Part shown: positions 18,481-64,000 of the stretch, in pieces
Position numbering within the stretch: the first letter of the stretch is position 1
How the letters are laid out: each line of letters begins with the position of its first letter
The notes under the pieces: generated by a model
The model's input: only the letters and a program-made list of their open reading frames with translations
The model's database searches: none
Told to the model about the DNA's origin: nothing
Made by a program: the position numbers and the translations under genes
Source: a virus
Length of the DNA: 64,000 nucleotides
Reading direction: 5' to 3' (one strand)
Virus record (IMG/VR): IMGVR_UViG_3300031576_000024
Coordinates: 18,992-82,991 of that record

Positions 18481-19220
18481 TGTTCACACCTGCCCACAAG
18501 GATGAGTTCATAGCCAAGGCCAAGACCATGAAGAAGCGTTACCCTGAAGTAACTATTGTCTATGATCTAGAAGACGGTGTGCCCGCGACAGAGAAGAAGC
18601 GGGCCTTTGAGAACGTGAAGAAGCACGCCCGTACAAAGGATTGGGTTCGCATTGACGACAACATGACATATGAGTTATACGACCTACCTACCGTACAAGC
18701 CATAGTCATTCCTAAAGTCACGCCTTACGTACTTGACCGTTACGTCGATATGGACGGTCGAAACAGCTTTGGCTGTGATAGAGTAATCGCTCTCATTGAA
18801 ACTGCTGCTGGCGTTGACGCTGCTAGTTACATTGCCGAGAAGGCTGGCGGTGTCATATTTGGGCAATATGATTTCATATTATCAATGAATTCCGAACTAC
18901 ACACTGACTACGCTAGATCACGGATCTTGAATGCATGCAAGGCTGCTGGCATTCCTGTGTATGACAGCCCTGACTACTCCCTGGACTTAAACACGATCAT
19001 GCATAACGCTAGGCAGGCGTACTGCCTAGGCTTTGACGGCATGGCAGTTCTACATCCTGACCATATCAAGATCGTGAAGGAAAACTTTAGAGCGCCTTAC
19101 AACCAGAGAGTATGGGCGAAGGGTATCTTGAAGAACGCTGGAGACGGACTGACTGTCTTCCAGAACACAATCATCGGCCCGCCCATAGTTAAGCGTGCCA
19201 AGCAAATACTACAGAAATGA
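18468..19220 (+). CDS. citE: CitE/HpcH-HpaI aldolase-citrate lyase family protein
   Basis: YDLEDGVP, WVRI, IPKV, LIETAAGV, FGQYDF, GFDG..LHPDHI; GGAGG RBS before ATG 18468. Confidence 0.82.
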   Translation: MQILMFTPAHKDEFIAKAKTMKKRYPEVTIVYDLEDGVPATEKKRAFENVKKHARTKDWVRIDDNMTYELYDLPTVQAIVIPKVTPYVLDRYVDMDGRNSFGCDRVIALIETAAGVDAASYIAEKAGGVIFGQYDFILSMNSELHTDYARSRILNACKAAGIPVYDSPDYSLDLNTIMHNARQAYCLGFDGMAVLHPDHIKIVKENFRAPYNQRVWAKGILKNAGDGLTVFQNTIIGPPIVKRAKQILQK

Positions 19221-53693: not shown

Positions 53694-56600
53694 TTACCAC
53701 AACCTTTCAATATTAATTTGACTAAATCCATTAGCCGCAGATGAAGTCAAAATTGTAGTAGAGTCAGCATTAATTTGTGTACTAAATCCAAATTTAGCAT
53801 CTGTGGGAGCATTAAATCTATGTGAGAATGTAAGCGTATTATTAAAATCAAAATCCACATTACAGAACCAAGTATTTCGTAATGTTTCTGATAAGATACC
53901 ATTTGCTCCAGTGTATAGTCTTATAGTAACCTGTCTTAATCCTGAAACACCGGCATGATCGTCAAAGTTAATAGTTCCGGTCAAAAGATAAGAAAGTAAT
54001 CCGTTTGTAGATCCTGGGAACAACAAACCTGTCCCACCAGTTATATTTGTTTCAGTAGTTGTAATTGAATCATTGCCAGGTAATATAATACTGTTAACAT
54101 TACTTTCAATATTAATTACAGAACCGCCGGTAGCCGTTGAACTTCTTGTTAGATAGAAATGGTCGTGATTTACAGATAGATTTTTGTAGTTAAGATGGGC
54201 ATTAGTGCCGTCACTTATTTGAATATTTCTATCTTCTAATCCGATATTAAAGAATATTCTACCAGTTGTAGCGTTTGATCTAAGAACTATACCTATTGCT
54301 TGTCTTAAATTCGGACCAACAGGCGGTGTAGTAGTCATAGCTCCTGGTGTTGTGGACACATACAATAGTGCCCCATATGCAAATGCTGAAGTATCTAGCC
54401 CTCCTACAATACCTCGCAGTAACATTGTTAGTGTACCAGATACCCCTGTGCCATTTAAAGCCACGCCGATCGCAGGTATGGCAGGTGCCGCACCAGTGCT
54501 AGAGGCGTCTGCCAGCGTGACACGAATGACAGAGGCGGCTGCTGCGCCGGCCGAAGAAAAAGGAGCTAATATTTGTCCTCTTGTTATTGATGCTCCAGAT
54601 AGATTTACACCGGAAGTAACACTATCTCTACTTAGATCATATGGCGGCGGTGTAGTTATAGTACCAGCAAGAGTTAGTCCGCCAGATTGAACCCATAATC
54701 TAGGAAGATTACTAGCAATCTCTCTAGCGGTGAATAAAGCTACAGTATTATTTTGAAGTTCTGGAATTTGAGCAATATTTGACGTTGACTCTGTTGTAAC
54801 AGGAGCATATTGTAAATATGCTCTATTTACCCACTTATTAGCTCGTCCTTCTTCTGTTGAATAGAACTGAAGAAAGTCATATATTTGCGGATTACTAATT
54901 TGTACGTCTTCAAGATTACTTAATTTACTATAAAATAAATCTATTCCGCTACCGATAGCAGCTATCGTAATATCGTTAGCACTAGGGGTTAACGTAATAT
55001 TAGAACCAGCAATTAAACTCTTAAACTGAAGATCAACATTGGACTTTTGAGCAAATACACCAGAACCAGAACCTAAATTAGAAGCGGTGTTAACTTCGCC
55101 TATACTTCTCAAGGATACTGTGGGCTTATTTACTGAATCTGAATGTAAATAAAACGCCTGACTATCAAATATTAAAGTATCATTACGGAAAGTAGGAGGA
55201 TTACCGTCCGATTCTCGGACAAAGATACCATAGAACCCCGGAGGTGTTTCTGTTCTAAGTAAGTATTGAGTATGGTCGTCATCACCAAGTCCTGTAAGAG
55301 CACCGTGGTCTGTAATTACAGGCGTTCTATCTCTTAAACTTACTAAAACTTCATCAGTATTAGGAACATTTTGAGTGATATAAAAGTCATTAACATCAAA
55401 TGCTACTACATTAATTCCGCTTAAACTTTCACTGTCATTTGAATGTTTAACTGTGATACCATAGAAATTCGCCGCATCAGCACTTGTTATATCAGTAGAC
55501 ATGACAACTGCTTTACCACTTACAGCAGAACTAAAGTAGAAAAAAGCAGTATTTGGACCGCTAGTATCAGCTTCGTCAAATCCTATAACTCTATCATCAT
55601 TATTAAATGCTTGAACAATTAAGTTTTTGTTATTTAAATTGTGATTTATAGTCCATTCAACAGCAGCAATTCCTTGAGTATGAACAAATGCTGCTGCATT
55701 TGTTGATGAAATAACAGTAGTAGTAGTCTGTGTTGTACTTTGATTTCGTAAACTTACAGTTGGCTTACCAGTCGAATCTGAATGTAAGTAGAAATCGGCA
55801 CTATCAAATATTAAAGTATCCTTCTTAAAGGTAGGAGGATTACCGTCCGATTCTCGGACAAAGATACCATAGAACCCCGGAGGTGTTTCTGTTCTAAGTA
55901 AGTATTGAGTATGGTCGTCATCACCAAGTCCTGTAAGAGCACCGTGGTCTGTAACTCCGCTCCCGCTACCTACTGAACCTCTAAAGTTAACTACAACTTC
56001 ATCTGTATTAGGTGAATTCTGAGTTACGTAGAAATCATTAGAATTAAAAGCAATTACATTAATGCCACGGAAACTTTGACTGTCATTACTGTGTTTAACT
56101 GTAATACCGTAGAATCCTGGATTCGCGGCAGCAGAAACTATAGAATCAACTATAGTTGAGAGGTTAGCAAACCTATCACCTAAACTTATAAAGACTTTAT
56201 TATCATCTTTATAGTTTACATAGAAATCTTCTGGATCAAGTAATAAATCAGCAAACGGTGTTAGTCTAGGTACATTGGCATTGTCTGTATGTCTGACAAG
56301 AAGATAAAATGGATCTAGCGGTAATAATTCAGCGGCCCCTAGAGCGCCTGTTGATACAATTACTCTACCATTAATACTTGAATCGAAGTAGAAGAATGCC
56401 GTATTAGGATCGCTTACATCTGCTTCACCAGGAATGATAACCCTGTCTTGGTCATCAAATACTTGTACCATAACAGGAGAGATGCCGAAGTTGTGGTTAA
56501 TAATCCACTCGCCGCCTGAAGCAGAGAAGATCCTAGATAAGCCAAATGAATTCTTAGCATTAACAACAGCAGTTCCTCTAAACGGATTCCCCTTTTTAGG

Positions 56601-57122
56601 AGTTAAATAGAAATCACTAGTGTTAAAGAAAAGAGCATCTGTAAAAGGAGGACTAAATGATGTAGCTGCTTCCGCACCAATCTCAGCAATTCTTTGCATC
56701 CTTTGATCGGGAAGGCCGTAGAACCCGCCTTCCGATCCGATACCCAATGCGCCAGCATCAAGACCGATAACCGTAACCATGCCTGTAACTTGGTCAATGC
56801 ACAGGTAATCAACCCATACAGGGACTAACTCTGTGCCTGTGTTACGCTGAATACAGAACTTATCTAAGGTTTTATCGTAGAAGAGCCTAAACTGATTCTT
56901 GAACGTTACCGTATTACTAGTCTGTTCACCGAACTCTAAGCCTGCTAGAACTCTGTCAGCGTTAACAAAATCATCACCTGTCTCAACGTCCTGTACCTGC
57001 GCACGCGCGACCGCTTTTAATACAGCAAAATCTTGACGAAAATTTCCCCACTGGAAATTCAAACGTTTACCGAATAGCGGTAACGGACTGTAGAATTCAG
57101 GGTTAGACTGAATCTCAGGCAT
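53694..57122 (-). CDS. Modular tail fibre protein
   Basis: 1142 aa; repeated GFYG modules, two WxINHN domains, two [16 protein letters not shown] motifs, S/T-rich. Confidence 0.8.
55192..55954. repeat. Identical 124-bp direct repeats (55192-55315 and 55831-55954) inside the tail fibre gene
   Basis: Base-by-base identity from GTAGGAGGATTACC to GGTCTGTAA; offset 639 bp (213 codons). Confidence 0.92.
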
Positions 57123-57400
57123 TAAACTTCACCATCCCATACGTCTCTAACGTAGAATACTGATAGAGGTTGGTCGAATGTATACCAGTTAGGCGTGCTC
57201 AATGCACTTTCCTTTGTCCATACTGTTTCATGTTCTTGTATGCGCTCCGGTACAATATCAAAATCTTCGGGGTTTAGAAACAAGTCCTCAGGAGAACCAG
57301 TGTTTAAAAGATGTTCGTCATTGATCGGTAAAGACCATATTGAACTTTTAGCATCAGGTTCCCTGACACTTCTAAGACGTTTCCACTGTGTCGTAGCCAC
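57122..57400 (-). CDS. Hypothetical protein
   Basis: 92-aa ORF coupled to the fibre gene. Confidence 0.5.
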
Positions 57401-57401
57401 A

Positions 57402-57704
57402 TTAGACGCCTGGACGCCAGCTTATCGTTACAACTACACCAGACGCTAAAGCGGGTACACGGAAACCCTTATCAAATATCGCATGTGGGTTCCATTCAGT
57501 AGAATTGTCTGCGGGGACCGTAACATCACCTACACCTACCGTAATATCGCCTTTAACAGAGCCTTGTGTGAAAGCTATATCCACAGCACCGGCTGTAGAA
57601 TTCGCTACCAGTACGTTATGTACTGCTACTGAATCTCCACCGTTTAACTGCGTAACACCGCTTGTACTATCTAGTCGTGTTACCACGGTTCCATAATGAC
57701 TCAT
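57402..57704 (-). CDS. Small virion beta protein, first gene of the minus-strand arm
   Basis: V/T/G-rich 100-aa ORF with AAGGAG RBS, downstream of a promoter motif. Confidence 0.5.
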   Translation of the reverse strand: MSHYGTVVTRLDSTSGVTQLNGGDSVAVHNVLVANSTAGAVDIAFTQGSVKGDITVGVGDVTVPADNSTEWNPHAIFDKGFRVPALASGVVVTISWRPGV

Positions 57705-57748
57705 TATCTGCTCCTTTAATCGTAGTCCGAACAGACTACTACTCTATG

Positions 57749-57817
57749 TAATTATACCATATTCAAATCACTTCAAGTAAACATATCACATGTCGGCCAA
57801 AGATTAAGGTATAATTA
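57749..57817. promoter_or_regulatory. Divergent pair of phage promoter motifs
   Basis: TATGGTATAATTA on the minus strand (57749-57761) and AAAGATTAAGGTATAATTA on the plus strand (57799-57817). Confidence 0.75.
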
Positions 57818-57855
57818 AGTGATAAAGGGAGAGGATCAAATAATCGAGGTATTAT

Positions 57856-58353
57856 ATGCACTACAAAGATATTTCAGGACAAAGATTTGGCAAATTAATT
57901 GCTGTATCATATGCGTACAATAAACGTTATGCTTACTGGCATTGTATGTGTGACTGTGGAAATACAGCCGTAATAAGAAGTGATACATTAAAGAATGGTA
58001 ATACTGAGTCATGCGGTTGCTTAGCTAAAGAGTGGACACAGACAGGTAAGATGAACCGTAAACATGGTATGCGTAAACATACTATTTACAAAGCCTGGAT
58101 TGCAATGAAACAGCGGTGTAATAATCCAAAGAATAAATCTTATAAAGATTACGGAGGACGCGGTATTAAAGTCTGTGACCGATGGTTAGAATCATTTGAT
58201 AACTTTAGAGATGACATGTTTCCTACGTGGCAAGAAAGTTTAACATTAGACCGAGTTAACAACGATGGCAACTATGAACCCGGTAATGTTAAGTGGTCAA
58301 CATGGAAGGAACAAGGCAATAACAGAAGGTCAAAGACATGCATGACTTCATAA
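57856..58353 (+). CDS. HNH-family homing endonuclease-like protein (paralog 7, different architecture)
   Basis: N-terminal DISGQRFGKL...WHCMCDCG...SCGC module, then [12 protein letters not shown]...[17 protein letters not shown]. Confidence 0.88.
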   Translation: MHYKDISGQRFGKLIAVSYAYNKRYAYWHCMCDCGNTAVIRSDTLKNGNTESCGCLAKEWTQTGKMNRKHGMRKHTIYKAWIAMKQRCNNPKNKSYKDYGGRGIKVCDRWLESFDNFRDDMFPTWQESLTLDRVNNDGNYEPGNVKWSTWKEQGNNRRSKTCMTS

Positions 58354-59138
58354 AAAGCCTATATGGCCGTCCTAGTACCATTACTACCTATAATAGTCTG
58401 TTCAAAAATCACATAGAACCGTTTGTTATAACACCTGTAACTGAACAACACCTTACTTCTTTGGTAAAACACTGGACCAGAGAAGGGATGTCAGAGAAGA
58501 CTATTAAACAAATGGTCCAACTTACTAATCAATATGCTAGATGGACAGGCCAAGCTCCTCTGCACACAGCACCTATAATTAGGAAGATTCAAAAGAGTAA
58601 ACAAGAGACAAAGATAAAGTCACTTACAAGTAAAGAAGCTAAATTACTCTTAGACTATTTAAGTGCTAAACAGTTATCGACATTGTATATTATCTGCTTG
58701 TTCGGAATACATGCGGGACTGAGAAGAGGCGAAATCTTTGGTTTACAATACGGGGACATAGATCCTTTGCGTAATCGCATAACCGTGTCTAGGCAGTACG
58801 GAGGTGCGCCGACAAAGAACGGGAAGACTAGGCAGGTACCGTTGAGTGAAAGATTAGCCAAAGCACTAGAACAACGAGACTACTTGACAAAACCGTCTAG
58901 AGAGGCTATTTTCAACGTTTTCGATCCCAACCCTGATTTGAAGAAGGTGACTATATTATTAGGAATTCGTGATATTACAATACATGATTTAAGACACACA
59001 TTTGCAACCCTAGCCCTGGAATCAGGTGTCTCACCTAGAACGGTGCAGTCGTGGTTGGGGCATTCATCATTAACAACAACTCTAAATATCTATTGGAGTT
59101 CGTTGCCCACAGAACAAAGGATGGATTTTGCCCCGTAA
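58338..59138 (+). CDS. Tyrosine recombinase/integrase
   Basis: Catalytic set AGLRRGE (R), TKNG (K), HDLRH, LGHS, NIYW (Y). Confidence 0.93.
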   Translation: MHDFIKSLYGRPSTITTYNSLFKNHIEPFVITPVTEQHLTSLVKHWTREGMSEKTIKQMVQLTNQYARWTGQAPLHTAPIIRKIQKSKQETKIKSLTSKEAKLLLDYLSAKQLSTLYIICLFGIHAGLRRGEIFGLQYGDIDPLRNRITVSRQYGGAPTKNGKTRQVPLSERLAKALEQRDYLTKPSREAIFNVFDPNPDLKKVTILLGIRDITIHDLRHTFATLALESGVSPRTVQSWLGHSSLTTTLNIYWSSLPTEQRMDFAP

Positions 59139-59186
59139 AGATCCTACAGTGGCTAATCAACTATTACGAGAAAGAAAGATCAAAAC

Positions 59187-59690
59187 ATGCGCATTACTAG
59201 AAGAATCATCAATCAGTGCTCTTTAGTTAAAGTGGAACACAAGCAGAGCACTTGGCAGTATGAGGACTATTATGACTTTTACTACTACCACAAGAAGGTC
59301 TGCTCTGCGTTCTTCAACTCAGAACACAACCAGACCATCACAGCAATATGTGAGCCCTGGTCTTCAGTGCGTAACGCTAAGAATGAGATGTTTCTAACTA
59401 GAATCAATAGGATAGAAGACGAAATTCACGGAGTAGACGTAATAGACGCAGAATACATCCAAGCTCTCTACATGGAGCATAAGGCCACAGAACAGGCTAG
59501 AGCTGCGCATTTATCTGATGAACATAAGCAAATGACAGATCCCAGGTTAAACCAGTTCACAGCTAATGAATTCGCTAAGATGTACCAACAGAACATCGAA
59601 GACCTAATGAATAAGTGGAAGATCATATCTCCTACTAAGATCAGTCCTAAGGTGTACTCCCAGAGTGTAAAGATCACAACAGTAAAATGA
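59187..59690 (+). CDS. Hypothetical protein
   Basis: 167-aa ORF downstream of the recombinase. Confidence 0.5.
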   Translation: MRITRRIINQCSLVKVEHKQSTWQYEDYYDFYYYHKKVCSAFFNSEHNQTITAICEPWSSVRNAKNEMFLTRINRIEDEIHGVDVIDAEYIQALYMEHKATEQARAAHLSDEHKQMTDPRLNQFTANEFAKMYQQNIEDLMNKWKIISPTKISPKVYSQSVKITTVK

Positions 59691-60685
59691 CCAAAAGAAA
59701 CGATATCAAAGGCGTATCCATAGTTGTCTCCAATAAGGTTGACTATAAGAATTACGGCGAATTGAACATCGTTTACGAAAATAATTTAATCTTAGAGGAA
59801 TTATCTTTCTTTATTTATTACGATAACTTCGTGAAGGTGACACACTAAACCCTACGTGGTCAAATACTTTGGCCTAGTGGTAGAGTGGATGGTAAACCAT
59901 CAGCTAGGCGAACACGCCCCTTTCATTCGTAAAGGTACACTATGTTCATAGACGATGATCTTTTCAACAACTACACAGTAATGATAACTAGCGGCAACGG
60001 CTATGACTACATATGTATCCTAGGCTGTGGTAAACAAGTCACCACGTTCCGTATAGAGAATATTATCTATAGTGACACCCTTAACTGCCCATCTTACATA
60101 TTGATTAAATACCATGCAGGTTGGGAAACCTATGCGCCCTTGATAGTAGAGTATTGCATCAATGATTTAAAGATCAACACTCTAGAGCTGATTGATGTAT
60201 ATGCCTGCAACTAGAGCACTATTCAGTAAATACCATGTAGAGGCATGGCCCGGTCACGGGGTTCATAAGACAACTAACATCAGGTTAAACTTTGTGGCCG
60301 ATAACGTTATAGTGTCCTGGGGCTCTATCTACGTATTTGACGGTAAGGACATAGAGCTTCACTGCTCTTATCGCTTCTTACCTCTGGCCGTTGAGTGGCT
60401 GGTGAACGAATATCCCTCTAGGAGCTTCTACCGTGTTACGTAGAGACTATAATCGTTACAAACTATTCCCGTCACACAATAGGTCTTTTGTATACATTTT
60501 TTATGACTACAATCTTGGATACTTCATAGAGCATTTGAAAATTGACCTTCTTAACGTTATTAGCATCAATAAGGCATTCCTTGGTACCCGCACCTCTTAG
60601 AGTGGCACGTAAACCGCTTTCCAGCTAAACCTGCACCTAAGTTATCTCCACCAAATCGGCAAAATACCTGGGCACTCATGATAGA

Positions 60686-61720
60686 CCCCGGGGGGCAATG
60701 CTCCCGCTGGGGGCCACCCCCCCTCGAACTTGCCTGTTAGTTGCCTATCCCTATCATTACAGTGCATCTAGGGTACAGTAACACGCAACTAGGTAGGCTA
60801 ACCCATTGATATTGCTAGACTTGCGCATTCCATGCGCATATGTTGCGTGTTTATTTAATCATGGGATTAAATAGTCAATATGTCCGCTCACTTAACCCAT
60901 CTTTTACCTATAAACATCACAATAACTGCACACTAATAGACCCATGTTGCCTGTTAGTTGCTCCGCAACAATCTGCACTACTGTACTCTACCCAACCTGT
61001 CCTGCACACCCCTGCCCACCGTATGCGCATCAAACGTGCAATTAACCAGCAACTAGGATAGTTGCTTATTGTCTGCCTGTTATCTGCTAGCTATTTGCAT
61101 ACGCAATTGATGTGCAACTAAACGGCAAGTATGATGATTGCGTATTAGTTGCCTATTATATGCTGGTTAATTGCATGTGCAATATGCGCTCTCTTGACCG
61201 TACACTGTGCAGAGTCGGAGTTGCCTATTCATGTACCCTAATTTGCTAGCATCTTCCTATTAGTTGCTAGCATTCTGCGCATTGTGATCCCGGCGGGGAA
61301 TCACACTCTGGATTCTTTAATGAATTCGCAGAGTTATAATGTTTGTTGCGCATTACTTGCGTGGTCATTGCGTGCTTACTTACCCTCTACTGCTTACAGA
61401 TTGCTAGCATGTTGCACTAGGTCATTGTGCAACTATCCTCCTAACCAGAGCGTATCCATTACGTTATTCGTCAGACTCACTGTAGCCTGCCCTGCTAACG
61501 TTATGCCTTGCCCCGCCCTGTACCAGCGCCTTGTAGCCGATCGTCGATCCTGGAGCATCCTAGAACGTGGCCGAATTTCGTCAATGATTCCGCATACTTA
61601 GCTCGTGTCATGCACACTCCTGAATAACTCAATGAATTCGCATAGTTGCGAGCTTAGTTGCCTACTTGTTAATGTTTGTCGCTCCCTATCTCTTATATAG
61701 GTTTTCGTCCCCGGGGGGGC
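60686..61720. repeat. Non-coding array of degenerate ~11-bp motifs (approx. CTRTTAGTTGC), both orientations, bracketed by CCCCGGGGGG boxes
   Basis: TTGC/GCAA recurs at 11-bp spacing (e.g. 60728-60748, 60946-60962, 61037-61175); C4G6C at 60686 and C4G7C at 61709. Confidence 0.7.
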
Positions 61721-62087
61721 GGCAATAATGACAATTTCGTCATGTTCAAAAAAAAGCGTCACCCTTTCCCCTGTTGGGTCACTCACCCTTGACGATACAC
61801 TTTCAACGGGAGCTAAAATGTATACTCAGGTCCAATTCAGCTACCGCAAAGGGCGTAAGGTTACGTATCTTTGCACGTTCATGCGAGACGGTTCGGTAGA
61901 GTTTCTACCGATTTCCGCGAAGGTCGCTGCGCGCCTTATCAAGCGCGGCATGGGATCGGGGAGCTAACGTGGACGACGTAACTTGGGAGCTACTGTGCGA
62001 AGCGGATCGACTAGCATCGGAAGTGCCGCTATGCGCGGAAACGATTGCGCTTGTCGATGCACTCGTTTCAGGAATCTGCGAGGATTT

Positions 62088-62142
62088 CTAGCCTTGACGA
62101 ATAGGTTAGGGTTGCTAACCTTAGCCTATCGGTCAACGTTAG
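62088..62142 (+). other. Long intergenic RNA hairpin 1
   Basis: TTGAC-GA-ATAGGTTAGGGTT / AACCTTAGCCTAT-CG-GTCAA with G-U pairs; just upstream of the RBS of ORF 62162. Confidence 0.75.
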
Positions 62143-62161
62143 CTTACCTAAAGGTAACATC

Positions 62162-62515
62162 ATGCGCGATTCTGTGACACTGGAAAAACTAGGCTTCTCT
62201 TTCGGGATGCTGAATGGGACCGCAGGCTATGTCAAGCTATATCCCCAGGGTTCGCTGGTAATCGTGCCGCGTACTCGCAAGGGATGGGACGCAATGTCCC
62301 CGAGACGTTCCAGGGTTCGCAAAGGCGTCCTAGTGTCGCTAGGTTGTCATAAGGGCGGAAAGGCTTTCCGAAAGTGGCTCCTATCCCTTGACGCAATCGC
62401 GCGGATTCCCGCATCTTGGATATGGAAGGATGATTCCACGGGATCGCTGAATTCCTCGCAAGGTGCGCGCATCGTAAAGCGCTTGCATTGGAAGGGTGGG
62501 CCGCATGCTCGCTAG
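62162..62515 (+). CDS. Basic hypothetical early protein
   Basis: 117 aa with AAGGT RBS after hairpin 1. Confidence 0.5.
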   Translation: MRDSVTLEKLGFSFGMLNGTAGYVKLYPQGSLVIVPRTRKGWDAMSPRRSRVRKGVLVSLGCHKGGKAFRKWLLSLDAIARIPASWIWKDDSTGSLNSSQGARIVKRLHWKGGPHAR

Positions 62516-62562
62516 TGTGACCGAAACGTCACATTTGACACTTTCTTAGATTCTGGTACACT
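62516..62562 (+). promoter_or_regulatory. Sigma70-type promoter with adjacent palindromic operator
   Basis: TTGACA (62535-62540), 16-nt spacer ending TGG, TACACT (62557-62562); TGTGAC-N6-GTCACA at 62516-62533. Confidence 0.65.
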
Positions 62563-62628
62563 CACTCAATAGACGCCGCTTGAATGTTTCAATCGGCACT
62601 AACTCAAGAAAAGGATAAGGTTAACATC

Positions 62629-62976
62629 ATGGCAAAGAATACGACTACGACGACTTCGACCGTCAAGCCTCGCGGCGGTAGGAGTGGCAAGGCTCGCGAG
62701 CGGCGTTCATTCTGGAGCCGCGCGCTTCAGGCTCCGAAGGTTCAGGAGGCTCTGACTTCGCTGAACGTGTCGGAGGCCGCTTTCGAGAAGGCTTACAACT
62801 CCACCCGAAAGATGCGCGAGCGAGGCGAGATTTCCGAGGCGCAAGTTGCGGCACTCAAGGGTTTTTCGGAGCATCGCAACCTTCGGAAGCTTGCCGAGGC
62901 AATCGGCAAGTCGGATATCACGGCGGCGAATCTGCTCGCGCGTGGTATCGAGTCGGGACTCGTGAAGCTTGCCTAA
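62629..62976 (+). CDS. Basic protein with C-terminal winged-HTH-like motif
   Basis: Start MAKNTTTT after AAGG RBS; LRKLAEAIGKSDITAANLLARGIESGLVKL. Confidence 0.55.
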   Translation: MAKNTTTTTSTVKPRGGRSGKARERRSFWSRALQAPKVQEALTSLNVSEAAFEKAYNSTRKMRERGEISEAQVAALKGFSEHRNLRKLAEAIGKSDITAANLLARGIESGLVKLA

Positions 62977-62977
62977 C

Positions 62978-63042
62978 TCTGGTTAGGTGAAACCGATTAG
63001 CCTAGGTTGTGAGCCTAGGCTAATACGTTTCAATTAACTAGA
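62978..63042 (+). other. Long intergenic RNA hairpin 2
   Basis: TCTGGTTA..TGAAAC..ATTAGCCTAGGT / GCCTAGGCTAAT..GTTTCA..TAACTAGA; followed by an RBS. Confidence 0.8.
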
Positions 63043-63245
63043 AAGGTTTGACAATGATTACGCTGCACGACGATGTTTCGGATGCGTACAGGGTCGCACA
63101 AAAGTACGCTCCTGCGCTTTTGAACGCGGTAGTCTATCAGAATGCGAGCGCATTCTTTTGGGCCGCGCTCTCGGATGGTAAGATGCGAGCGGCTGAGTTG
63201 TCACTCTCGCGACTCGCTGATATGGGCAGATAAGAACCTTTGGAG

Positions 63246-63324
63246 TTAGCTAAGATTGAATAGGTTAGGTTCGTGCCCAATTGCACGGTAATATAACCTT
63301 CCTAATCTATTCAATCTTAGCTAA
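63246..63324 (+). other. Long intergenic RNA hairpin 3 (24-bp stem)
   Basis: TTAGCTAAGATTGAATAGGTTAGG / CCTAATCTATTCAATCTTAGCTAA with one G-U pair; inner CGTGC/GCACG hairpin. Confidence 0.85.
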
Positions 63325-63338
63325 ACAAGGAATAGGTC

Positions 63339-63764
63339 ATGAAATCTATTAATATCAGAGCATTCAAGGCTTTTAAGTATAAGGCCCACGGTATTGATAG
63401 TGTGTTCTATACCTTGAAATGGAAAGGTAATAGAGTCGGGCTTAAGCTATTCCAGAGCCCGAGTGAGTGTAATAAAATCCGACGCTTTCAAGTTAAGGGA
63501 TTCAGGGGCGGTGTAGCTCCTGCTGTGTTGGGTGCTACGTTTAAGGTGATAGCTACGAATGGTAGCGCGTTCGGGTACGGATACCTAACTGAGATAGCGG
63601 ACGTAGATTCGCGTAGGATCTATAAGAAAGAAGTTTACGAACCCTTGTGTGAATTGTTTAACAAGGTATTTGGTTTCTACCATACTGACTTTCACGAAGG
63701 TAACGTAGGTTACGTTGAAGTAGGTAATCAGAAGCGTCTAGTATATGTAGACTTCGGGTTTTAA
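63339..63764 (+). CDS. Miniature protein kinase-like (PKL) protein
   Basis: AHGIDSVFY (P-loop-like), VGLKLF (catalytic Lys), APAV, YLTE hinge, HTDFHEGN catalytic loop, YVDFG. Confidence 0.78.
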   Translation: MKSINIRAFKAFKYKAHGIDSVFYTLKWKGNRVGLKLFQSPSECNKIRRFQVKGFRGGVAPAVLGATFKVIATNGSAFGYGYLTEIADVDSRRIYKKEVYEPLCELFNKVFGFYHTDFHEGNVGYVEVGNQKRLVYVDFGF

Positions 63765-63811
63765 GTATGACTAAGAAAGACTTGATCCGTGTATAAGGTA
63801 AACGAACGACG

Positions 63812-64000
63812 ATGAATAAACTATATTCTGTATGGCTACAGCGTAATAAGCTACGTGCCGAGGGCAATAAGCTACATGCCGAAGGCTATAAGTTATATGC
63901 CGAAGGCTATAAGCTACGTGCCGAAGGCGAGAAGCTACATGCCGAAGGCTATAAGTTATATGCCGAGGGCGAGAAGTTATATGCCGATGGCGAGAAGCTA
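63812..64000 (+). CDS. Heptad-repeat protein (xKLxAEG)n, runs off the window
   Basis: MNKLYSVWLQR-NKLRAEG-NKLHAEG-YKLYAEG-YKLRAEG-EKLHAEG-YKLYAEG-EKLYADG-EKL. Confidence 0.7.
   Translation, partial: MNKLYSVWLQRNKLRAEGNKLHAEGYKLYAEGYKLRAEGEKLHAEGYKLYAEGEKLYADGEKL
63845..64000 (+). repeat. 21-bp tandem repeat, at least 7.4 copies
   Basis: Consensus NANAAGYTAYRTGCCGARGGC with no spacers. Confidence 0.95.

Follow-up and report, generated by a model that had tools for sequence, protein, structure and literature searches.

The last 64 kb of the IMG/VR virus record IMGVR_UViG_3300031576_000024 (82,991 bases, ~69% complete) contain a gene that encodes a 141-residue half-kinase. The stretch of 64,000 nucleotides that was analyzed (positions 18,992 to 82,991 of the record) is referred to as the window, and its positions are used as coordinates. 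Structure modeling assigns the half-kinase a protein-kinase-like (PKL) fold that runs from strand 1 to the DFG motif and comprises Hanks subdomains I–VII only. The gene is intact and belongs to a large phage family without a name, all members of which lack the activation loop as well as helices F to I. Judged by its sequence, the half-kinase domain has every residue expected to be needed for ATP-Mg binding and for the catalytic base. We estimate a probability of about one in two that the half-kinase is an ATP/Mg-dependent phosphotransferase directed at proteins, with either low intrinsic specificity or dependence on a partner.

The half-kinase gene, its predicted fold, and its family

The gene and its putative ribosome-binding site are located as follows:

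63339..63764, + strand: half-kinase gene, from ATG at 63339 to TAA at 63762–63764, 141 amino acids (aa), isoelectric point (pI) 9.67
63327..63332, + strand: Shine-Dalgarno-like sequence AAGGAA, 6 nt 5′ of the half-kinase ATG

The encoded protein has a mass of 16 kDa and contains the motifs V33-G-L-K36-L-F, H115-T-D117-F-H119-E-G-N122, and D138-F-G-F141-stop. It terminates one residue past DFG, i.e., 3 residues past D138. All three forward frames are closed within 11 codons 3′ of the stop codon, which excludes a C-lobe hidden by a frameshift. Contigs from a public DNA run on the same kind of sample span positions 63000–63898 without differences. Two such DNA runs, both from one sample, were used to confirm the sequence; no RNA run was listed among the public runs. 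The original prediction had described a 141-aa kinase-fold gene with VGLK, HTDFHEGN, and DFG motifs, and the open reading frame (ORF), the model, and the alignment agree with this description in every detail; the sequence likewise bears out that the protein ends one residue past DFG, without an activation loop or C-lobe. A protein identical to the half-kinase has also been recorded from a 129,437-base contig.

The structure of the half-kinase was predicted with AlphaFold2 from a 32-sequence alignment, which yielded a predicted local distance difference test score (pLDDT) of 94.1 and a predicted template modeling score (pTM) of 0.87. An independent single-sequence model from the ESM Atlas had a pTM of 0.79. 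In the AlphaFold2 model, the N-lobe is formed by strands β1–β3 at residues 10–38, with the G18 loop and K36, and by helix C at residues 41–56, with Q51. Strands β4–β5 follow at residues 68–84 (strands 68–71 and 77–84) and lead through the T84-E85 hinge to a helix at residues 97–111. The chain then forms the catalytic loop D117–N122 and strands β7–β8 at residues 123–136 (strands 123–128 and 131–136), reaches D138-F-G, and stops. The model reproduces two features of PKL folds, namely the superposition of the N-lobe sheet and helix C and the presence of the Lys, Asp, Asn, and DFG Asp residues; the helical C-lobe after DFG is missing.

The kinase fold proposed in the original prediction, for which structure prediction and a Foldseek comparison with PKL folds had been suggested as checks, was recovered in both. 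Foldseek returned 189 matches in the PDB at E ≤ 1e-3, and those listed were all kinases. VIA, a structural aligner independent of Foldseek, found 82 chains at Z ≥ 8, of which the best 50 listed were all kinase-like and covered model residues 1–141. The best VIA match was DRAK1 (Z 10.9, root mean square deviation [rmsd] 3.5, 133 residues aligned); further matches were ULK4 (Z 10.5), the 216-residue archaeal kinase TkArkI (Z 10.4), and Rio1 and Rio2 (Z 9.6). Model residues 4–141 were also superimposed by VIA on residues 25–160 of Shigella OspG (Z 8.7, rmsd 3.0, 120 residues aligned).

Relatives of the half-kinase were collected with an exhaustive phmmer search over 1.84 billion cluster representatives, in which the counts include the window protein itself. 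This search returned 32 proteins at E ≤ 1e-3, including 8 at E ≤ 1e-10, and no full-length kinases at E ≤ 1e-3. Thirty of these proteins span 131–198 aa. The extra length of the other two (312 and 347 aa) is a low-complexity charged tail and not a C-lobe. A profile built from the 32 proteins matched 113 clusters of 139–205 aa, all of them unnamed or annotated as "hypothetical protein."

Conservation was counted in an alignment of 141 pooled family proteins. K36, Q51, P61, G124, and D138 are invariant (141/141), G18, T84, D117, and N122 are kept in 140, and H119 is kept in 136, so the catalytic residues are conserved among proteins that share only ~30% identity. Q51 is the only invariant polar residue of the predicted helix C. 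The residue following the DFG-position Asp is T in 89/141 proteins, F in 36/141, C in 11/141, and P in none of the 141. The tail past this Asp has a median length of 31 residues; it comprises 12 residues or fewer in 35 proteins and 50 residues or fewer in 139, and only the two low-complexity proteins exceed this length. A C-lobe is present in 0/141 family proteins, and three tail types occur past DFG: none, a Cys-rich knuckle, and a long charged tail. A length of 141 aa is normal for this phage half-kinase family.

The Cys-rich tail is found in a sister clade of ~175-aa proteins, where CxYCxxYxCxC follows I-D-T-G-x-E-S. Relatives of this clade are encoded in 303/320 candidate IMG/VR stretches, which gives a minimum of 303 sites. 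The uncultured phages concerned have contigs of up to ~206 kb. A model of the sister clade had a pLDDT of 84.4, and its best structural match was OspG (Z 9.3), with Bud32 (Z 8.1), NleH1, Ark1, and HopBF1 (Z 7.8 each), and Rio2 among its other matches.

These relatives occur only in uncultured phages. When the collection of cultured phages was searched, tblastn with the window protein gave only chance matches at E up to 10, and nothing was found by tblastn with the sister-clade protein P0085 or by blastn with positions 62500–64000. The search of genome contigs contained no close-clade relatives, and the search of metagenome contigs contained one such locus (L086), which encodes a homolog with 44% identity.

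The shortest family members (131–141 aa) are below every matched kinase-fold chain, the smallest of those listed having 160–176 residues. The family may represent roughly the smallest natural kinase core, and kinase-like proteins of comparable length may occur outside phages as well. The ESM Atlas contains a bacterial cluster of 164 members with 154-aa proteins that have Pkinase and RIO1 Pfam matches and a TM score of 0.68 to the model; for the 3 members that have a record, the most frequent phylum is Bacteroidota.

Relation to known kinases

Neither Pfam nor PHROGs contains a curated family dedicated to the half-kinases. Among curated families, the window protein reached Pfam ABC1 (PF03109) alone, with 24.2 bits against a cut-off of 22.9, and this match was limited to residues 84–140, corresponding to profile positions 156–212 of 244. 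ABC1 and the half-kinase have the H-x-D-x-H-x-G-N…D segment in common, whereas the match does not extend into the N-terminal portion of the ABC1 profile. The NCBIfam UbiB equivalog TIGR01982 scored 16.2 bits, far under its cut-off of 487.55. At E ≤ 0.1, ABC1 matched 8 of the 32 relatives, APH matched 2, and RIO1 matched 1 (E 0.016); APH (PF01636) did not match the window protein at E up to 10. When PDB sequences were searched with a profile, an APH-type amicoumacin kinase ranked first (E 0.008), over H-x-D-x-H-x-G-N…I-D-F. The PADLOC search of the half-kinase gave no match, and the PHROGs search gave phrog_9248 alone (E 0.19). These searches make the half-kinases a branch of their own within the kinase-like superfamily, with a catalytic loop of "atypical" appearance (His at D+2) and not of the Hanks type.

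Precedents exist both for half-kinases (OspG/NleH) and for phage kinases that have hardly any C-lobe (the kinase of phage T7, T7K). The open-access literature that was searched contained no account of a phage kinase-like family of ~120–190 aa ending at DFG. In passages of PMC3585378, residues 24–160 of OspG are described as kinase subdomains I–VII, with subdomains VIII–XI missing, and the protein "appears to be a half kinase"; its C-terminal helix (residues 161–196) is required for the binding of ubiquitin, which activates OspG. OspG and NleH (PDB 4q5h, 4lrj) resemble the window protein in that they consist of subdomains I–VII only, keep the catalytic residues, and have no activation loop. However, OspG has 196 aa with an activator-binding C-terminal helix, whereas the half-kinase stops where this helix would begin, and OspG is a bacterial effector in eukaryotic cells, whereas the half-kinase is a phage protein. 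OspG and NleH were not listed in single-sequence and profile searches of PDB sequences with E up to 10 (no dedicated OspG profile). RIO1/RIO2, Bud32, ArkI/Ark1, and HopBF1 are likewise reduced kinase folds without an activation loop, but their matched chains of 173–269 residues all continue past DFG, and their sole sequence link to the half-kinase is the RIO1 Pfam match in 1/32 members.

T7 gp0.7 (PHROG 2828; JSS1_004 is a homolog) resembles the half-kinase in being a phage kinase with a D-x-H-x-G-N loop and little sequence past the DFG position. Passages of PMC13645617 place the DFG-equivalent DPV of T7K at residues 213–215 and a kinase-only construct at residues 1–242, which therefore ends ~27 residues past the DFG-equivalent. 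The same passages describe the SO domain as dispensable for kinase activity, T7K as hyperpromiscuous and anti-defense, and its gene as an early gene in an operon. We aligned T7 gp0.7 with five homologs from the phage collection; all six sequences have the D-x-H-x-G-N loop in common and end soon past the DFG-equivalent, in which D213 and P214 are invariant. A stand-alone T7 gp0.7 homolog of 243 aa, ending 28 residues past the DPV Asp, is encoded by Salmonella phage CHRF_10037 (L092, 701–1432) and is a natural counterpart of the kinase-only T7K construct.

T7K differs from the half-kinase family in having DPV in place of DFG/DTG/DCG, ~70 extra residues before the Gly-rich loop, and an insertion before the catalytic loop, and it usually carries a C-terminal DNA-binding shut-off domain. 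The three PHROGs matched by T7 gp0.7 (2828, 15752, and 18305) were matched by 0/10 half-kinase members, when the window protein was scanned at E up to 10 and nine other members at E up to 1. With hhalign, the half-kinase alignment matched the T7K alignment with a probability of 42.6% (E 2.6e-4); the 38 aligned columns cover only the segment that begins with the catalytic loop and ends with DFG. An ESM Atlas feature neighbor in the T7K comparison (0.93) is a lead only. The comparison with T7 gp0.7 made in the original prediction thus holds as an architectural analogy; membership in the T7 gp0.7 family is not supported by the PHROG scan, by the hhalign result, or by the motif, which is never DPV in the half-kinases. 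T7K serves as a functional precedent for the half-kinase, not as its family.

A further group of short kinase-like proteins was found in jumbo and T4-like phages by searching the PBECO4 record with the half-kinase family profile, which matched ACQ29_gp311, adjoining denV (E 4.2e-4). This 123-residue family is present in 118 cultured-phage records, where it is annotated as hypothetical. Like the half-kinase, its members stop right past a DFG-type motif (…KLDYGD-stop), and N-(F/V)-G-Y…G-K-L-V-x-(I/L)-D-(F/Y)-G is common to both families. However, the catalytic loop is D-x-K-P-E-N instead of D-x-H-x-G-N, and the N-lobes do not align. The hhalign comparison of the half-kinase with an alignment of six 123-residue sequences gave a probability of 88% (E 3.1e-6) over 25 columns only, and tblastn with the window protein at E up to 10 recovered no member of the 123-residue family. 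We regard the 123-residue family as separate from the half-kinase family and at most distantly related to it.

Genomic surroundings of the half-kinase gene

The kinase gene belongs to a group of small + strand genes, and the structural genes, on the − strand, are oriented divergently from this group. The following features surround it:

62535..62562, + strand: sigma70-like site TTGACA-16-TACACT with TG extension, 10/12 matches, 5′ of the gene at 62584–62976
63054..63233, + strand: small upstream gene, 59 aa from ATG at 63054 (61 aa from TTG at 63048), no family match
63246..63324, + strand: long intergenic hairpin just 5′ of the kinase, 24-bp main stem, no U tail
63846..64000, + strand: 21-nt tandem repeat, 7.4 copies, 3′ of the kinase, open in several frames

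The original prediction had placed the gene in a probable early region. The divergent block of small genes agrees with this, but sigma70-like sites are no commoner in the region than in shuffled sequences (15 observed and 13.8 expected). The site at 62535–62562 could conceivably be a promoter for the unit containing the kinase. The block around the kinase looks mosaic in composition: three small upstream genes (62162–63233) have a G+C content of 54–57%, the kinase gene has 42%, and the window mean is 44.4%. Farther upstream, the ~1.7 kb at 60444–62161 separate an integrase-like gene block from the small genes with hairpins between them. Neither strand of this segment has an ORF longer than 105 aa, and Rfam gave no match to it at E ≤ 0.1.

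The hairpin just upstream of the kinase has a folding free energy of −39.9 kcal/mol (z −7.78), and 0/200 shuffled sequences were as stable. An Rfam match to mir-3136 at 63247–63323 (28.6 bits against a gathering cut-off of 86) merely reflects this hairpin and was rejected as a microRNA. A hairpin is also found 5′ of the kinase homolog in L086 (−34.2 kcal/mol, z −4.0). The 12-mer GAATAGGTTAGG and its complement are in the arms of the window hairpin, and GAATAGGTTAGG builds both arms of the L086 hairpin (copies at 1198–1209 and 1260–1271). With one mismatch allowed, GAATAGGTTAGG occurs three times in the window (62099–62110, 63258–63269, and 63301–63312), compared with 0.4 copies expected, and these copies form the arms of long hairpins preceding genes. 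A sequence-conserved regulatory or processing hairpin appears to travel with the kinase block. L086 is an unrelated metagenomic contig, and its proteins are only ~40% identical to those of the window.

The 59-aa gene upstream of the hairpin has a homolog in L086 (969–1181), directly 5′ of the kinase homolog, with 37% identity over 59 aa (pairwise E 1e-13). It is the only window neighbor that recurs beside a kinase homolog elsewhere. The other L086 neighbors differ from those in the window: a gene with a Fic domain precedes the pair, and the gene that follows it, of 77 aa, is unrelated. In the remaining 84 family loci (L002–L085), a hidden Markov model of the 59-aa protein detected no copy, its best other match (E 0.64) being inside the window; no further copy was found in IMG/VR, and a word-based protein search returned only the protein itself. 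Complex prediction for the kinase and the 59-aa protein gave no answer (score 0.00, mark 0.32, without controls) and speaks neither way. The window and L086 are two loci, too few for establishing the kinase and the 59-aa protein as a functional pair. The Fic/DOC-domain gene of L086 (359–919; Pfam E 2.4e-6, motif HPYMDGNGRSGR) lies directly upstream of the pair of small gene and half-kinase, so that two different protein-modifying enzymes are encoded side by side in this locus.

All ORFs of the 84 loci and of window positions 54001–64000 were clustered (85 sources). The kinase was the sole gene cluster common to the window and other loci, which marks the half-kinase as a self-contained module. 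In the sister clade (L006–L085; e.g., L006, 5001–5531 and 6210–9797), the half-kinase gene is located two small genes upstream of rIIA (PHROG 612, E 1e-113) and rIIB (PHROG 609, E 2e-72), with a DNA ligase gene nearby. Genes of another half-kinase clade are found among small same-strand genes.

Downstream of the kinase, an ORF from 63812 to the end of the window covers the tandem repeat and encodes heptads of the type xKLxAEG. The repeat, which runs to the last position of the record, is not a kinase C-lobe. Public contigs break up at the repeat, between 63844 and 64000, and the end of the record is therefore probably a break in the assembly.

Proposed activity and alternative explanations

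In the proposed mechanism, Lys36 would anchor ATP, Asp117 and Asn122 would act in the catalytic loop, and Asp138 would bind Mg, all in one cleft, from which the γ-phosphate of the bound ATP-Mg would be passed to a hydroxyl group. Since there is no substrate-binding lobe, the enzyme would work in one of two modes, non-selective phosphorylation or partner docking. In the former, any protein that reaches the open catalytic face could be phosphorylated, with low specificity as in T7 gp0.7. In the latter, the half-kinase would gain competence only by docking: an abundant protein of the host or the phage would complete or orient the core, in parallel to OspG on E2~ubiquitin. The variable tails past DFG may be exchangeable targeting or docking pieces on a constant catalytic core. 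The small + strand genes split by long hairpins and the location of the sister clade beside rIIA and rIIB would suit an early host-directed role, which is a conjecture. We also consider it possible, although only tentatively, that the members of 131–141 residues are self-sufficient active protein kinases. Subdomains I–VII would then be the smallest natural catalytic unit, a phage "warhead" that is aimed by tails or docking.

Several observations weigh against a protein-directed phosphotransferase. Passages of a preprint on SteC (bioRxiv 10.1101/2025.03.01.640964) report that constructs without helices F and G were well folded but inactive on a peptide; it follows that truncation here can leave a core without activity of its own. 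The helix-C Glu that pairs with Lys appears, from the spacing, to be replaced by the invariant Gln51. Similarity to known families is restricted to the segment from the catalytic loop through DFG, and it points equally to small-molecule or atypical kinases and to protein kinases. The early timing of the kinase gene is conjectural, with gene layout as its sole basis.

An open catalytic face would also admit a small or polymeric non-protein substrate, and the half-kinase could instead be a kinase for a small molecule or nucleic acid (a nucleotide, a signaling molecule, or an RNA 2′-OH), which we regard as rather doubtful. This explanation draws on the order D-x-H-x-G-N then I-D-F-G, which matches APH- and ABC1-type enzymes, and on the sequence searches, in which ABC1 was the match of the window protein, APH was found in 2/32 members, and the amicoumacin kinase was the best PDB profile match. 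Archaeal kinases of the ArkI type, which phosphorylate tRNA, are among the best structural matches of the window protein (TkArkI) and the sister-clade model (Ark1). The window protein is basic, and pI exceeds 8 in 26/32 of its closest relatives, but basic charge is not family-wide, as the median pI over the 141 proteins is 6.42. The D-x-H-x-G-N loop does not discriminate between the two kinds of substrate because the protein kinase T7K has the same loop. Furthermore, the substrate pocket of APH-type enzymes is built by the helical region after DFG, and it is this region that is absent here, while no metabolic or nucleotide-modifying gene is among the conserved neighbors. The half-kinase might also transfer no phosphate at all and be an ATP-binding or ATP-hydrolyzing module or a pseudokinase-like binder, acting as a switch, a decoy, or a chaperone-like ATPase; we think this improbable as well, to much the same degree. 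It would be consistent with ABC1/UbiB as the sole Pfam match, since COQ8 members of this family are described as ATPases in PMC13418538, with the invariant Gln that appears to take the usual place of the helix-C Glu, and with the folded but inactive SteC cores. On the other side stands the conservation of Asp117 and Asn122 (140/141 each) and of Asp138 and Lys36 (141/141 each) at ~30% identity, which is usual for active phosphotransferases, although the same pattern of conserved residues would fit an ATPase too.

The half-kinase would be one subunit of a split kinase if a separate phage protein supplied the missing C-lobe surface, and the candidate for this role is the product of the 59-aa upstream gene. 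The homolog of this gene upstream of the L086 kinase, despite the differing other neighbors, and the hairpin with the same 12-mer arms that separates the gene pair in both the window and L086 speak for such an arrangement. However, the pair is known from these two loci only, perhaps just from related phages, and the 59-aa protein was found neither in L002–L085 nor in IMG/VR. Moreover, the 83-kb, ~69%-complete record contains no Pkinase or APH fragment (six-frame APH search, E ≤ 1) and no second ABC1 match elsewhere. We regard a split kinase as quite unlikely. A truncated pseudogene of a full-length kinase, which the original prediction had expected much longer homologs to reveal, would explain why the protein stops one residue past DFG with nothing else following. 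Yet 139/141 relatives have 50 residues or fewer past the DFG Asp, none has a C-lobe, and no full-length kinase was recovered; in addition, the catalytic residues are invariant and the intact gene has a good start codon and ribosome-binding site. Because the family data show the short form throughout, the pseudogene explanation is refuted. A protein-directed phosphotransferase is the explanation that we prefer.

Helix F and the C-lobe are the textbook scaffold that holds the kinase catalytic machinery together. A natural conserved family that ends at DFG would test this view, if its members are active. It would then set the lower limit of the fold for catalysis, and enzymology and protein engineering would benefit from knowing this minimal unit. 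The T7 kinase is described in passages of PMC13645617 as a broad anti-defense weapon. The half-kinases add another kinase-like family, which is much smaller and unrelated in sequence. One of its clades alone accounts for at least 303 IMG/VR sites, and this abundance in large phages that are uncultured suggests that phosphorylation-based manipulation of the host may be far more widespread than cultured phages reveal.

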